Assembly (NCBI GenBank): GCA_024911895.1
Contig: GCA_024911895.1_3948.1
Reading direction: 5' to 3' (one strand)
Length of the DNA stretch: 64,000 nucleotides
Source of the DNA: a phage
Positions 1-40,636 of the stretch are shown in pieces. The notes under the pieces are model-generated. The model was not told where the DNA came from. It searched no databases and was given only the letters and a program-made list of their open reading frames with translations. The position numbers and the translations under genes are program-made. Each line of letters opens with the position of its first letter. Within the stretch, counting starts at the first letter, position 1.

Positions 1-1050
1 AAAAAAATATCTGTCTAGGATGTATATCTGCTTGGTAGCCCTTAACATCTCCCTTACAAGTGCTTTGCAAAATTTTAAAATATCCTTAACAATCTCTTAA
101 CAGTTCTCACAAGCTCTTAACATCTCTTCAGAGGTCTTAACAGTTTCTTAACAGAACTAACAAGGGTGTAACAGTTTCTTAACAGTTGATACATAGACTT
201 TACAGAGTCTTAACAGATGACTAACAAGAGCTAACAAGTTAATTTTAAAGAGTTATTTTGTTAAGATAATTAACAAGTTCCTAACAAGTGTTTAACCTTT
301 TTAACAAGCTGTTAACATGGTCACTATCTCTTTTCTTATCGTTCCCTTTCCTTTCTTAGTGATTCTTTAAATAGCCCTTTTAAAAGCTCTGTATAGCTCT
401 GTATAGCCCCTTTTAAGTCTCTTCCTAGTAATTACACCCCAACTGTACAGACACCTCCTTATAGGGCTTTTCAGGAGCTTTAAAGGCTATGCCAAAGGCT
501 CTTACAAGGCTTTTACGTGGTTTTAACAGAGATTTAACAAGTTGCTAACAAGTGCCTTAAAAGCATAACTATTTAGGGATTGTTAAGAAATTGTTAAGAA
601 AATGTTAAGGGGGCTAGCATTTACGTAACTTTTAAGCTACTTTTAAGCAACTTTATAGCCCCTATAACATACTTTTAAGACACTAACAATAGGATTCGAT
701 AGATTCCTATCTCATAGCCCTTTTTAGTTATTCACAAGATACTAACGAGATAATAAAGCTTACACCCTTATAAGATTCTTTTAAGGCTCTGGGAAGCTTT
801 ATAAAGGGCTTTTAAGGGTGAGGTAATGCAATCCCTTAAGTTAGGTTGATAAGGCTGTTATAGGGCTTTATAGAGCGTTTAAATGGTTGCCCTTCCCTTT
901 CGGGTTATGGGCTTATATTTAAGTTGATTTGATAAAAGGCTATAGAGTAGACTATAGAGTTATTGCTTTTTAAGGTATGAGATAGATTCTGACTTGTTAG
1001 GGAGTCTTTAAGATTCTGGGAAGGGATTAGATAGACGTAAAAAAGCCCCT
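1..1050. repeat. ~1 kb AT-rich non-coding region packed with short direct and inverted repeats (TAACAG/TAACAAG iterons, CTCTGTATAG x2, CTATAGAGT x2, TTGTTAAGAAA-type x3, several CTTTTAAG)
   Basis: no ORF with a ribosome-binding site; about 16 copies of TAACA(G/A) between ~40 and ~320, many spaced 10-11 bp apart; inverted copies (TTGTTAAG) at ~581-612. Confidence 0.6.
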
Positions 1051-2844: not shown

Positions 2845-2932
2845 TTTAGAATCTCCAGTTTAGGATTGAGTGGTAAAGCTCTTTATCTGGGGCTTACTTT
2901 ATCGAACTATAAGCCCCTTGTAAAGTACTTTA
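2845..2932 (-). repeat. family-B early cassette: hairpin GGGGCTTA..TAAGCCCC, palindrome AAAGTACTTT, leader ending AAACTGGAGATTCTAAA-ATG
   Basis: 88-bp unit essentially identical to 3642..3726 and 2 mismatches from 5845..5932; abuts the ATG of ORF 2302..2844. Confidence 0.7.
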
Positions 2933-3133
2933 TTAGTTATTTTTTACAACTTTTAAAACTGCAAGGTAACCTAAGCAATAAGAATCACCGAAAAGAGTCC
3001 TACCCATGAAAGAATCCTCTTTTATATCCTTTTCAGTGACGGTTTTTTCTACTCCGTGAAAAAGGACTATATCACCGACTTTGATATCTTTGATATGAGT
3101 AGTTTCAATGTTTAAACCGTTAATAATAGCCAT
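2933..3133 (-). CDS. hypothetical early protein (66 aa)
   Basis: ATG after family-A leader. Confidence 0.5.
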   Translation of the reverse strand: MAIINGLNIETTHIKDIKVGDIVLFHGVEKTVTEKDIKEDSFMGRTLFGDSYCLGYLAVLKVVKNN

Positions 3134-37679: not shown

Positions 37680-37936
37680 GTAAGCCTCTTTTAAGTAACT
37701 ATTAAGTTTTAATCTTTTATCTTAACGTATTCTATACGTTATACTTTAAAGCTTTTTAAAAGCTATTAAATAATCTTTTAAGAGTTTTAAAGTATCTGTA
37801 TAGTTAAACTGTTAAGTAACCTTTTAAGTAAAAACCCACTTCGCAAAGATTAACACCTTGTCAAGTACATTGTCAACTTGCTTTTTATAATTTTTTGCAG
37901 TAATGTATGAGGTTAATGATTTTAGAGGGAGTAAAA
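37680..37936. promoter_or_regulatory. AT-rich divergent intergenic region between the leftward and rightward gene blocks, carrying copies of motifs from the 1-1000 region (TCTGTATAG, CTGTTAAG, CTTTTAAG)
   Basis: read directly; GAGGGAG RBS before the polymerase ATG at 37937. Confidence 0.5.
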
Positions 37937-40636
37937 ATGGAAAACGTAGATTTTAAAAACTTACATTTAGTTGGTGATACAGAAACTGATGGTTTACTCC
38001 TTGAGTTCACTAAAGTTCACGTAATGGCTTTCGCAGATTATAAATCTGACGATGAAGAGCCACCTGTATGGGTCTTTACAGATGAGCCTATCCTCGGTCA
38101 CAAGTACACTAAGTACATTAAGGGTGGTTTACGTGAAGGTGTTGAGTTTGCGTTAAAGGCAAAACGACTTTGTATCCATAACGGCCTCGGTTATGACTGG
38201 TGGGTCTTCAATCACATTGCACCGGATTTATGGAACTTTGATAATCCAAAATGTAAGCCGTGGAGTAATTTCTTTCAGGATTCTCTTATCCAGTCTCGTG
38301 TTCAGTGGATGGATAGACCAACTCCAAAGGGTTATAAAGGTGCTCATGGTTTGGCTGCATGGGGTGCTCGTGTTGGTGTTCGTAAACCAGAGATTGAACA
38401 TTGGGGTGTGTGGAATGCAGAAATCTTCACTCGTGTTGTAGAAGATATCCGTATTAACGCCAAAACTAAACGGGCACTTGATAATGAATATCTCAAGCTT
38501 AAGAAGTGTGGTATAGACACTTATGAAACTTACATGCGAGCTAAAGAAACATCTTTCTGGATGAGTCAACAGGCTATCAATGGCTGGAAAGCTGATAAAG
38601 AGCTTATGGAGTTCCATGTAAAGGAACTTGACAAGTTGACTAATGAGCTTGCTTCAGAGGTTGAACCACATCTACCTCCAACTATTAAGACCAAAGGTAA
38701 AGTTACTGGAGAAGAATTTGCAAGAGCTTGGAATGAGTATGTTGAAACATTTGGTCATGCAGATGGACTGAAGAGAATCACCAAGTATCCTAAGACAAAG
38801 TATCGTCAGCAGGTACGTAACGGTGAGATGCAGACATATGAAATCAAGCCATTTGGTAAGCCAACTACAAAGATTTTTAACATTGAAAAGAGAAATTGCT
38901 ATACACCAACCAACTCTGTAACTGGTGAAGAGTACAAGGAAGGTTTTGTAGCAATGAAGGATGCTCGTGCAATTTGCAATGAGTTGAATGCAAAGATTGG
39001 TAAGAAATGCAAAGACTGGAAGCCAGTAAAAACAGTTAAAACTGTGAAGTACTATAACAGTCATGTTGTTAACCACTTTGAGCTTGAGTCAAGTCGCTAC
39101 ACAGGTTTGATTGATGCACCATATACACCAATTGAGTTCGAAGTTTCTCGTATGACTCAGGTAGCAGTTGTTAAAGACTACTTGAAATCAGTTGGTTGGA
39201 TTCCAGATGACTGGAACTACAAGAAAGACTCAGATGGTCGTCCTGTTAAGGTTTGTCGTTTCAAAGACAACAAAAAGATGATTACCAAGCATCCTAAATG
39301 GCAGGAGATGGTTGAACGGTGTGGTTTGAGTTATGTTGAACATGAAGGTGTCCAGTACATTGAGCATAACTGGTCTGTGAAGAAGTACACAGATTTGCTT
39401 GAGCCTTGCTTAATCCGTACTTCACCAAAACTTACTGAATCATCTTATGATACGATTGAAGGTGAGCTTGGACAGAAGATTGCTAAGTACTATACTTTGA
39501 TGCACCGACGCAGAACTATTGAGAACTCAAAGGATGATGAAAAAGGTTGGTTGAACCAGATTCGTCCTGATGGTCGACTTAGTGCTGGTGCAATGGTGTT
39601 TGGTACTTCAACTGGACGTATGACACAATATGGTATTGTAAACGTACCGTCTGGTGCTGCTGTCTATGGAGCACCTATGAGGGAGGTATGGACTTGTGAA
39701 GATGGTACAGATATCATCTCCGTAGACCAAAACTCAGCACAGCTAGTTCTCCTTTGTAACTTTATGGGTGATGAAGACTTCACTAAAGCGGTAACTGAGG
39801 GTAAAGAGTCAGTAGAGTTCACTAAGCAAGAGGATGGCAGATACTACTGTAAGCATCTTGATAAGTATCTTAACCCAGAAACTGACAAGTATCTTCGTTA
39901 TGATGCTGAGAATGACCTCTATGAAGTCTATACAGGGACTGATGCACATACATTGAACAGTATTTACTTTGGTCTTAACAAAGAAGAGGATATTATTCTT
40001 TGTAGGGAGACACAGGATGAGGAACTTCTTCACGAGATTACAAAAGGTCGTAAGAAGAGCAAAAATGGCATCTACGCCCTGTTATTTGGAGCCGGAGATG
40101 AGAAGTTTGCGAAAACTATCAAGGCATCATCTACGGAAGAGGGTGCGTTGACTAAACAAACTTACTTTGTGCGTCTACCTAAGATTAAAAAACTGCTTGA
40201 TAGATTAGAGGAAGACTTCAAAGCAACTAAGAAAGCACTTGAAGAGGTTTTCGGAAAAACTTCTGCAATTGCCAAAGGTGGCTATATCAAAGTTGCTGGA
40301 GCGTGGTTATGGTGTAAATCTCCACATAAGTTATTGAATTACACACTTATGGGCAGTGAGGCGCAGGTGCAGAATGAGGGTATTAACTTGGCTAACAGAG
40401 AGTTAACAGAGCGCAAGCTTACAGTTCTAAATGGTAGGAAGCCTGCTATTGGTGCTAGGTGGGTCTGTAGTTACCACGATGAGGTCTCTTTAGAGGTTCC
40501 AACCAAAGATGTACCTGATGTTAAGGAGATTATTGATAGAATGTATGGTCAAGCATCAAAAAATCTTGGATTAAAGAGTAAGACGCTTGTTACAGGCACT
40601 GGTAAGGTAGGTAAGACATGGTACGCCGTACACTAA
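37937..40636 (+). CDS. DNA polymerase, family A (with 3'-5' exonuclease domain)
   Basis: exo motif LVGDTETDGL; motif A-like ISVDQNSAQLVLL; motif B RKKSKNGIYALLFGAG; motif C VCSYHDEVSLE. Confidence 0.8.
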   Translation: MENVDFKNLHLVGDTETDGLLLEFTKVHVMAFADYKSDDEEPPVWVFTDEPILGHKYTKYIKGGLREGVEFALKAKRLCIHNGLGYDWWVFNHIAPDLWNFDNPKCKPWSNFFQDSLIQSRVQWMDRPTPKGYKGAHGLAAWGARVGVRKPEIEHWGVWNAEIFTRVVEDIRINAKTKRALDNEYLKLKKCGIDTYETYMRAKETSFWMSQQAINGWKADKELMEFHVKELDKLTNELASEVEPHLPPTIKTKGKVTGEEFARAWNEYVETFGHADGLKRITKYPKTKYRQQVRNGEMQTYEIKPFGKPTTKIFNIEKRNCYTPTNSVTGEEYKEGFVAMKDARAICNELNAKIGKKCKDWKPVKTVKTVKYYNSHVVNHFELESSRYTGLIDAPYTPIEFEVSRMTQVAVVKDYLKSVGWIPDDWNYKKDSDGRPVKVCRFKDNKKMITKHPKWQEMVERCGLSYVEHEGVQYIEHNWSVKKYTDLLEPCLIRTSPKLTESSYDTIEGELGQKIAKYYTLMHRRRTIENSKDDEKGWLNQIRPDGRLSAGAMVFGTSTGRMTQYGIVNVPSGAAVYGAPMREVWTCEDGTDIISVDQNSAQLVLLCNFMGDEDFTKAVTEGKESVEFTKQEDGRYYCKHLDKYLNPETDKYLRYDAENDLYEVYTGTDAHTLNSIYFGLNKEEDIILCRETQDEELLHEITKGRKKSKNGIYALLFGAGDEKFAKTIKASSTEEGALTKQTYFVRLPKIKKLLDRLEEDFKATKKALEEVFGKTSAIAKGGYIKVAGAWLWCKSPHKLLNYTLMGSEAQVQNEGINLANRELTERKLTVLNGRKPAIGARWVCSYHDEVSLEVPTKDVPDVKEIIDRMYGQASKNLGLKSKTLVTGTGKVGKTWYAVH

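Follow-up and report, generated by a model that had tools for sequence, protein, structure and literature searches.

A helically phased TAACA array within the direct terminal repeat of a Felix O1-like phage and its possible role in genome packaging

We analyzed a phage sequence of 64,000 nucleotides (contig GCA_024911895.1_3948.1; the whole stretch is hereafter called the window) and focused on an array of short TAACA motifs near its start. Homology indicates that the region holding this array, positions 34-614, almost certainly represents the direct terminal repeat (DTR), short and exact, of a myovirus related to Felix O1. The motif array is real and non-random, and comprises about 25 short sites that are strand-oriented and helically phased. 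Most likely, these sites do not serve as a replication origin but tell the DNA-packaging enzyme where the genome ends are. Based on sequence similarity, the window represents a Felixounavirus genome: its first 1.4 kb present 86-92% identity to more than 250 Felix O1-like phages, which are virulent myoviruses of ~87 kb with hosts among the Enterobacterales. A first-pass annotation, made from the letters alone, had proposed an iteron-type origin, a partition site or an operator array at positions 40-620. This span is almost exactly that of the inferred DTR, a context that the annotation missed. The interpretation should be re-centred, from an iteron array serving replication or partition to the internal architecture of the DTR, which is probably a signal for packaging and terminus generation.

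Window positions 34-614 align end to end with the duplicated ends of phages D4 and NBEco004 and with the DTR annotated in UAB_69, which maps to window 32-616. The records of D4 and NBEco004 carry both copies, and their exact end repeats are 581 bp and 628 bp long, respectively. In these two phages the DTR starts at GGTAGCCCTTAACAT, which corresponds to window position 34, and it ends at window position 614 with ...GTTAAGGGGGC in D4 and ...GTTAAAGGGGC in NBEco004. We detected one copy and no second DTR copy within the window. The boundaries lie 2 nt apart on each side (window 32-34 and 614-616) when UAB_69 and MM7 are compared to D4, NBEco004 and SPARTY, which may result from the mapping method or from short single-stranded extensions at the real ends. 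The DTR itself is already known for Felixounavirus. A 608-bp DTR was shown in UAB_Phi87 by Bal31 digestion and run-off sequencing (PMC4837284), a 613-bp DTR was found in Ro111lw with PhageTerm (PMC6454146), and the ends of D4 and E9 were also determined with PhageTerm (PMC11737134). Relatives are reported to be lytic and to have linear virion DNA with DTRs (PMC11737134; PMC4837284). In phage Bas63, the DTR homologue is found mid-way in a gene-free gap of 1.66 kb with convergent gene blocks on either side. We found no open reading frame (ORF) of at least 40 amino acids (aa) within positions 1-1050 of the window, in agreement with the earlier statement that no coding sequence overlaps the array.

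Conservation in the region peaks in the sequences that straddle the two boundaries (boundaries are marked here by ^). In records with both DTR copies (D4 and NBEco004), the left junction reads ...TGTATATCTGCTT^GGTAGCCC, and in SPARTY it reads ...TTGTATATCTGCTT^AGTGG. Positions 23-42 of the window (GATGTATATCTGCTT^GGTAGCCCTTAACA) were 100% identical across 20 phages. The right junction is described in Table 1 and its equivalent in SPARTY is ATGTAAAAGTGGC^TAACCATAGCGTAAA.

Forward TAACA cores, in the form cTTAACAg or cTAACAAG, start at positions 43, 87, 98, 118, 138, 149, 158, 169, 180, 211, 222, 232, 271, 282, 302, and 313, and a second forward group starts at 524, 535, and 546. Inverted copies (TTGTTAAG or ATGTTAAG) occupy positions 580-587, 591-598, and 602-609, and two more inverted cores are found at 259 and 310. 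The left array also contains in-phase degenerate units: TTACAAG at 54, TCACAAG at 107, CTTCAGAG at 126, TACATAG at 190, TTTACAG at 199, and TAACC at 293. These positions agree with the first-pass annotation, which had counted about 16 same-orientation copies between ~40 and ~320 (16 forward cores at 43-313) followed by further forward copies (three at 524-546) and inverted copies (three at 580-609). The examples it had placed at 137, 147, 157, 168, and 178 are CTTAACAG at 136, 147, and 178, CTAACAAG at 157, and TAACAG at 169. The 16 forward cores at 43-313 compare to 0.49 expected from the rate observed in the rest of the window (Poisson, 3e-19). First-order Markov simulations with the region's own composition yielded a mean of 1.5 and a maximum of 7 cores in 5000 runs, against 19 observed. 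The first-pass annotation had tied its reading to the motif not being equally dense throughout the genome, and we found no similar density anywhere else in the 64-kb window: no other copy of the cluster was detected, the densest other 300-bp stretch contained four forward cores, and the scattered matches fall inside genes.

We found that the best period of the array is 10.3 bp (Rayleigh R = 0.84-0.85), a value reached by none of 3000 random placements. At exactly 11.0 bp, R was only 0.22 because interspersed spacings of 9, 10, and 20 bp correct the drift of the 11-bp units. The mixed spacings hold the array on the helical repeat, and the coherent period is the helical repeat rather than the local 11-bp unit. 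The proposal of one-turn phasing at 10-11 bp stands as far as helical phasing is concerned, but 11 bp does not hold as a long-range period.

The array adjoins both DTR boundaries, which were placed by homology and are the presumed sites of sequence-specific terminase cleavage. Measured from these boundaries, 9 nt separate the left terminus from the start of the first forward copy, and the inverted copies stop 29, 18, and 7 nt short of the right terminus. Because the copies are mirrored, both physical ends read G..CCCTTAACAT inward and then present further copies every 11 bp. Given these inferred ends, the arrangement amounts to a short terminal inverted repeat (I1-I3) nested in the direct repeat. 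The distances of the copies from the termini are identical in D4 and NBEco004. In UAB_69 and SPARTY, forward CTTAAC copies run on into the unique flank on the right-end side, a part of the genome outside the window.

Table 1. Features of the DTR and its surroundings (window coordinates; ^ marks a DTR boundary).
Feature	Position	Strand	Remarks
DTR, one copy in the window	34..614	.	Boundaries placed by homology
Outer half of the left junction: unique sequence ahead of the right-hand DTR copy in virion DNA, including the invariant GATGTATATCTGCTT at 19-33	1..33	+	Based on records with both copies
Left array, 16 exact forward TAACA cores and degenerate in-phase units, period 10.3 bp	41..318	+	
Terminus-proximal A/T-rich element CTTTGCAAAATTTTAAAATATC	62..84	+	97% identical in 20 Felixounavirus-like phages
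Central DTR segment without TAACA cores; second motif with 10-11-bp spacing: CTGTATAG at 389 and 399, CTTTTAAG at 410, CTTATAGG, CTTTTCAG, and CTTTAAAG at 457-485	320..520	+	
Three forward copies TTTAACAG, TTTAACAAG, and CTAACAAG, 11 bp apart	521..553	+	3-6 copies in relatives through 11-bp indels
Three inverted copies, on the minus strand CTTAACAAT, CTTAACAAT, and CTTAACAT	578..612	-	Inverted repeats I1-I3; 2-4 copies in relatives, in 11-bp steps
Right junction TGTTAAGGGGGC^TAGCATTTACGTAAC, nearly invariant	604..632	+	97% identity over 603-622 (20 phages)
Unique non-coding stretch just inside the left genome end; phased CTTTTAAG, CTTTATAG, and CTTATAAG at 629-680, 766-817, and 855-875	615..1050	+	

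Comparison across relatives suggests that the TAACA sites have been maintained by selection. In the alignment of 20 phages, the columns of the TAACA cores were 97.1% identical relative to 85.3% for the intervening columns (Mann-Whitney p = 1e-9), and 15 of the 22 distinct indel events were 10-11 or 21-23 bp long, i.e., whole units. Assemblies also collapse or break at the DTR and its 11-bp units; contig L067/L068, for instance, is interrupted within the array, and the length of the DTR varies between 581 and 628 bp. For the members of Kolesnikvirus (Erwinia phages phiEa21-4 and MM7 and Hafnia phage SPARTY), DNA similarity was detectable only to window 63-145, which belongs to the array, and in SPARTY the corresponding stretch is found at an equal distance from the start of the record. 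The DTRs of Kolesnikvirus are 439-444 bp long; in SPARTY and MM7, the left half carries forward CTTAACA copies and the right half is dominated by reverse TGTTAA copies. The left arrays of Felixounavirus and Kolesnikvirus both present a period of 10.3 bp, with R at 11.0 bp of only 0.13-0.29, and the Kolesnikvirus junctions are recognizably alike (TTGTATATCTGCTT^AGTGG and AAAGTGGC^TAAC). The CTTTGCAAAATTTTAAAATATC element can be recognized in SPARTY, MM7, and Pectobacterium phage Wc4. In the more distant Wc4, the motif, the CTGTGCAAAATTTTAAAATATC element, and the right-junction-like ATGTTAAAGTGGG are kept in a convergent gene-free region. No array was detected in the portions examined of Yersinia phage P778, whose terminal region was not located. 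We consider it highly probable from these patterns that the region is a protein-binding array under selection. The earlier idea of cooperative protein binding along one face of the helix is therefore retained, with indirect support from the phasing, the conservation of the cores (97% against 85%), and their retention across genera; the roles of iteron origin, partition site, or operator array that came with it are not.

A 22-bp near-palindromic insert, GGGATTGGTAACAATACCAATT, is absent from the window but occurs in the DTR array of several relatives, where it occupies three distinct positions. Its copies are located in records L001 (3235-3256), L009 (4072-4093), L044 (853-874 and 957-978), L098 (2055-2076), L033 (9280-9301), L027 (2762-2783), and L110 (8598-8619), and relative L077 carries a version with 26 bp of extra sequence. 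As far as its distribution among these records indicates, this insert behaves like a small mobile or recombination-shuffled cassette.

What could the array do at the genome ends? Our best reading, to which we give about an even chance, is that a phased protein-binding array marks the concatemer junction and positions both terminase cuts. Under this scenario, a phage-encoded protein would bind the sites cooperatively on one face of the helix and thereby mark the junction. The protein-array complex would then position the terminase nuclease at the invariant junctions TGTATATCTGCTT^GG and GGGGGC^TAGC, which would create the ends of the DTR, and the mirrored terminal copies would provide an equal protein-to-cut geometry at both boundaries. 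A protein that binds one face and organizes the junction for the terminase would be consistent with the phasing and orientation of the sites, with conservation concentrated in their cores, and with their constant placement relative to two invariant cut sites. A tie to the termini is further suggested by the invariance of both junctions, by the preserved distances between copies and termini, by the restriction of Kolesnikvirus similarity to the array, and by its retention in Wc4. Overall, the odds that the array takes part in packaging or terminus generation appear evenly balanced.

A candidate for the binding protein can be proposed. The 2010 genome paper of Felix O1 stated that these phages seem to encode a large terminase homologue only and identified no small subunit (PMC3185647). 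We found that gp129 of Bas63 (123 aa; L131 29867-30238, outside the window) matches PF18932/DUF5681. In all five informative contexts, which come from several unrelated lineages, a gene of this family is found immediately upstream of a large terminase (TerL) gene (context records L133, L134, L136, L139, L142, L144, and L145). The family presents the invariant motif FKKGQSGNPxGRPKGSxN with an N-terminal arm PxGRPKGSxNK, and this motif aligns to the AT-hook PRGRPKGSKNKG of HMGA1 in its DNA complex (PDB 2EZD), although the match is short (E = 0.17). Gene context suggests that DUF5681 is probably an unrecognized small-terminase family. It is a tentative candidate for the protein that binds the array, and we consider this assignment possible but unlikely. 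Speculatively, the AT-hook arm could enter the minor groove of TTAA, which the array presents once per turn, and an oligomer of the protein could then wrap the DNA. The DTR would in that case act as a nucleosome-like platform for packaging initiation, with DUF5681 AT-hooks at TTAA every 10.3 bp, ~270 bp of wrapped DNA, and mirrored sites placing the nuclease at both boundaries; this fuller model is rather doubtful. If it were true, a single cis-element would dictate both of the cuts from which an exact terminal repeat arises, a step that is mechanistically unclear for short-DTR phages beyond T7 and T3. A search of the DUF5681 protein against NCBIfam returned no match, and its AlphaFold2 (AF2) model contains no helix-turn-helix (HTH) domain. 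The product of the gene just upstream of TerL, gp1 of Bas63 (66 aa), matched no family beyond a PHROG of unknown function.

Several points weigh against a packaging array bound by this protein. Both the binding and the packaging role are deduced from sequence. To our knowledge, the function of the analogous arrays of T7 has not been established, and proximity to the termini is therefore no proof of a role in packaging. All known hosts are Enterobacterales, so that a conserved host protein could equally explain the constancy of the motif. Curvature, whose prediction the first-pass annotation had listed as a check, is unremarkable: a wedge model, with values that are approximate only, gave a mean of 23.6 degrees per 63 bp for the array against a genome median of 26, and thus did not point to a static bend. 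DUF5681 is proposed as a small terminase from gene neighborhood only, its AF2 model is mediocre (predicted local distance difference test, pLDDT, of 69), and a Foldseek search with it found no match in the PDB (best E = 3.5). The AT-hook arm is also invariant in DUF5681 proteins of phages without the TAACA array and therefore cannot explain specificity for the C-A that follows TTAA. Finally, the DUF5681 gene is located ~6 kb from the TerL gene in Felix O1-like phages. A gene for a Ro-like RNA-binding protein and a tRNA island are found between the two. We found no TAACA arrays near the DUF5681 genes of distant phages.

The alternative that fares best is a nucleoprotein complex that organizes the ends independently of the terminase, for instance by protecting them from RecBCD, by holding them together, by favoring DTR-DTR recombination into concatemers, or by controlling ejection. 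The two physical ends present one inward-reading motif series, the array is conserved across genera, and the sequence by itself fits such a complex and packaging alike. However, the invariant sequences spanning the cuts point to recognition by a nuclease, ~25 sites reaching 280 bp inward exceed the needs of end-capping, and no candidate protein was found for this role. We consider this explanation rather improbable.

An iteron-type replication origin, where a phage initiator would bind the phased repeats and melt an adjacent A/T-rich stretch, appears quite unlikely. In its favor, many same-orientation repeats with helical phasing are present, short A/T runs are found at 69-83 and 239-249, and the phage encodes its own polymerase and primase-helicase together with many uncharacterized genes. 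Yet the array lies in the DTR between convergent gene blocks, and the cumulative GC skew peaks at 1135 and is lowest at 37877, within the divergent region beside the DNA polymerase gene; this polarity is terminus-like, but it is confounded by the direction of transcription. The DTR contains no DnaA box and no consensus for the integration host factor (IHF), and the longest A/T run measures 15 bp. In the annotation of relatives, the flanking genes are small hypotheticals and none is a recognized initiator, and an origin does not require an 8-bp core mirrored at both termini. Three further candidates are not supported. A plasmid-type partition centromere is at odds with the absence of par genes annotated beside the region in relatives, which are lytic with linear DTR virion DNA. 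A promoter or operator array was rejected: a sigma-70 scan yielded six sites against 4.2 +/- 2.2 in shuffled sequences, no terminators were found, and the flanking genes point toward the region. For a structured RNA, no Rfam match was found at E <= 1.

It is very improbable that the array represents a functionless expansion of tandem repeats through slippage or unequal recombination within the terminal repeat. Indels do occur in whole units of 11 and 22 bp, and perfect 11-bp TTCTTAACAAG tandem arrays are found in unrelated phage contigs, as would be expected from neutral expansion. Against it, the cores are conserved far better than the spacers, the long-range phase of 10.3 bp is held by mixed spacings of 9, 10, 11, and 20 bp, and the array persists with its position and orientation across genera whose flanking non-coding DNA has diverged beyond alignment. 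The unrelated contigs, from IMG/VR, carry either the perfect TTCTTAACAAG arrays (5-11 copies) or imperfect CTTAACA arrays with variable spacers, all intergenic (L123 8614-8740; L015 ~2918-3000, same in L122; L013 7664-7720, same in L120; L054/L075; L023; L019). The ORFs flanking the arrays in L075, L023, and L123 presented no Pfam matches and gave no clue to a binder. These arrays may have arisen by chance among millions of contigs, or they may reflect a recurrent binding motif.

The least probable explanation, with hardly any weight in our assessment, is that the motifs are sites for a host regulator of the OmpR/PhoB family such as PmrA/BasR, either as a decoy titrating a regulator of lipopolysaccharide (LPS) modification or as a recruited architectural factor. 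LPS is the receptor of Felix O1, and phages that infect Salmonella, Escherichia, Erwinia, Hafnia, and Pectobacterium share an unaltered motif. The PmrA box reads CTTAAG or CTTAAT, N5, and xTTAAT, arranged head to tail (PMC3973317). The same format of hexamer, 5-bp spacer, and head-to-tail orientation is found in CTTAAC-N5-CTTAAC at 85 and 136 (plus strand) and at 598 and 609 (minus strand), so that the earlier statement that the motif matches no familiar host-factor site was too strong. Position 6 differs, however: it is invariably C where known boxes have T or G, which departs from the hexamer YTTAAK, and roughly one copy in three is CTAACAAG, a form that deviates from the hexamer. A single strict box match was found in 1-1100, at position 631, and it belongs to a second motif family rather than to the array. 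A decoy would also leave the mirror arrangement at the termini unexplained.

This second family of phased 8-nt motifs (CTTTTAAG, CTTTATAG, CTGTATAG, and CTTATAAG, with a spacing of 10-11 bp) is found at 377-420, 457-485, 629-680, 766-817, and 855-875, with 13 copies in the first kb relative to ~1 per kb elsewhere. The equivalent region of SPARTY (L004 560-870) carries (C/T)TTAGAAG in its place, and the second motif has therefore changed between genera, whereas TAACA has not. Its only other cluster in the window, with five copies at 37688-37821, is located in the divergent intergenic region 37680-37906 upstream of the DNA polymerase gene (37907-40636, plus strand). The cumulative GC-skew minimum at 37877 coincides with this region, a stronger candidate for an origin or a regulatory element than the DTR. 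The unique non-coding stretch next to the DTR contains a perfect DnaA-box consensus, TTATTCACA, at 728-736, and its ATTCACA part is kept in 20 of 20 aligned relatives; with up to one mismatch allowed, 1.3 matches per 1100 bp are expected by chance, and a single match does not exceed this. Finally, GATC is entirely missing from the 64-kb window relative to ~187 occurrences expected from dinucleotide-preserving shuffles, which is an extreme avoidance of this Dam/MboI-type site.

Felix O1-like phages are the classical Salmonella typing phages and are widely used in biocontrol and therapy, and their packaging signal is undescribed. We came across no description of the motif array in the papers on Felix O1, UAB_Phi87, and the Danish wastewater phages. 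More generally, the literature searched gave us no account of the phased array, of its mirrored layout, or of the AT-hook protein proposed here as a candidate small terminase. A conserved array of cis-elements at the terminal repeat, two invariant junctions, and a candidate small-terminase family constitute concrete targets for footprinting, packaging assays, and genome engineering.

The array shares properties with several known systems. The pac hexamers of P1, the R sites of lambda cosB, and pacL/pacR of SPP1 are likewise short elements repeated next to a site where the terminase cuts sequence-specifically; the small terminase binds them, with bending or wrapping of the DNA. These elements work in the manner that we propose for the DTR array, whose membership in this class is that of a candidate, drawn from its sequence. 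They differ in number and extent, with 3-7 elements over 100-200 bp and binding that has been shown, whereas the sites described here number ~25 over 580 bp, are bracketed by two presumed cuts, and are known from sequence. Iteron origins and type II plasmid centromeres (e.g., parC of R1, with 11-bp repeats) use direct repeats spaced by about one turn that nucleate a cooperative protein filament or ring. The DTR array resembles them in its direct repeats at about one-turn spacing, but it is found without a Rep or ParR gene and without the context of a DNA unwinding element (DUE) or DnaA, and it resides in the terminal repeat of a lytic phage with a linear genome. The PmrA box shares with the array a hexamer with a 5-bp spacer, the direct orientation, the 11-bp unit, and five of six identical bases (PMC3973317). 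It differs in that the sixth base of the array is always C, that the array has dozens of consecutive units instead of two, and that it lies outside a promoter context. The nearest analogue is the array of CCTAACG- or CCTAAAG-type repeats in T7, presumably the short-repeat arrays called SRL and SRR in the classical literature. T7 (NC_001604) presents 13 array copies at 175-355 with a period of 13.05 bp, as well as three copies at 17-60 inside its terminal repeat. Both are phages with a short exact DTR in which same-orientation repeats of 7-8 bp adjoin or, for a few copies in T7, enter the terminal repetition. The main array of T7 is located just outside its 160-bp repeat and its period of 13.05 bp is not helical, whereas the array described here lies inside the DTR, follows a period of 10.3 bp, and is mirrored at the two ends, with a motif unrelated to that of T7.

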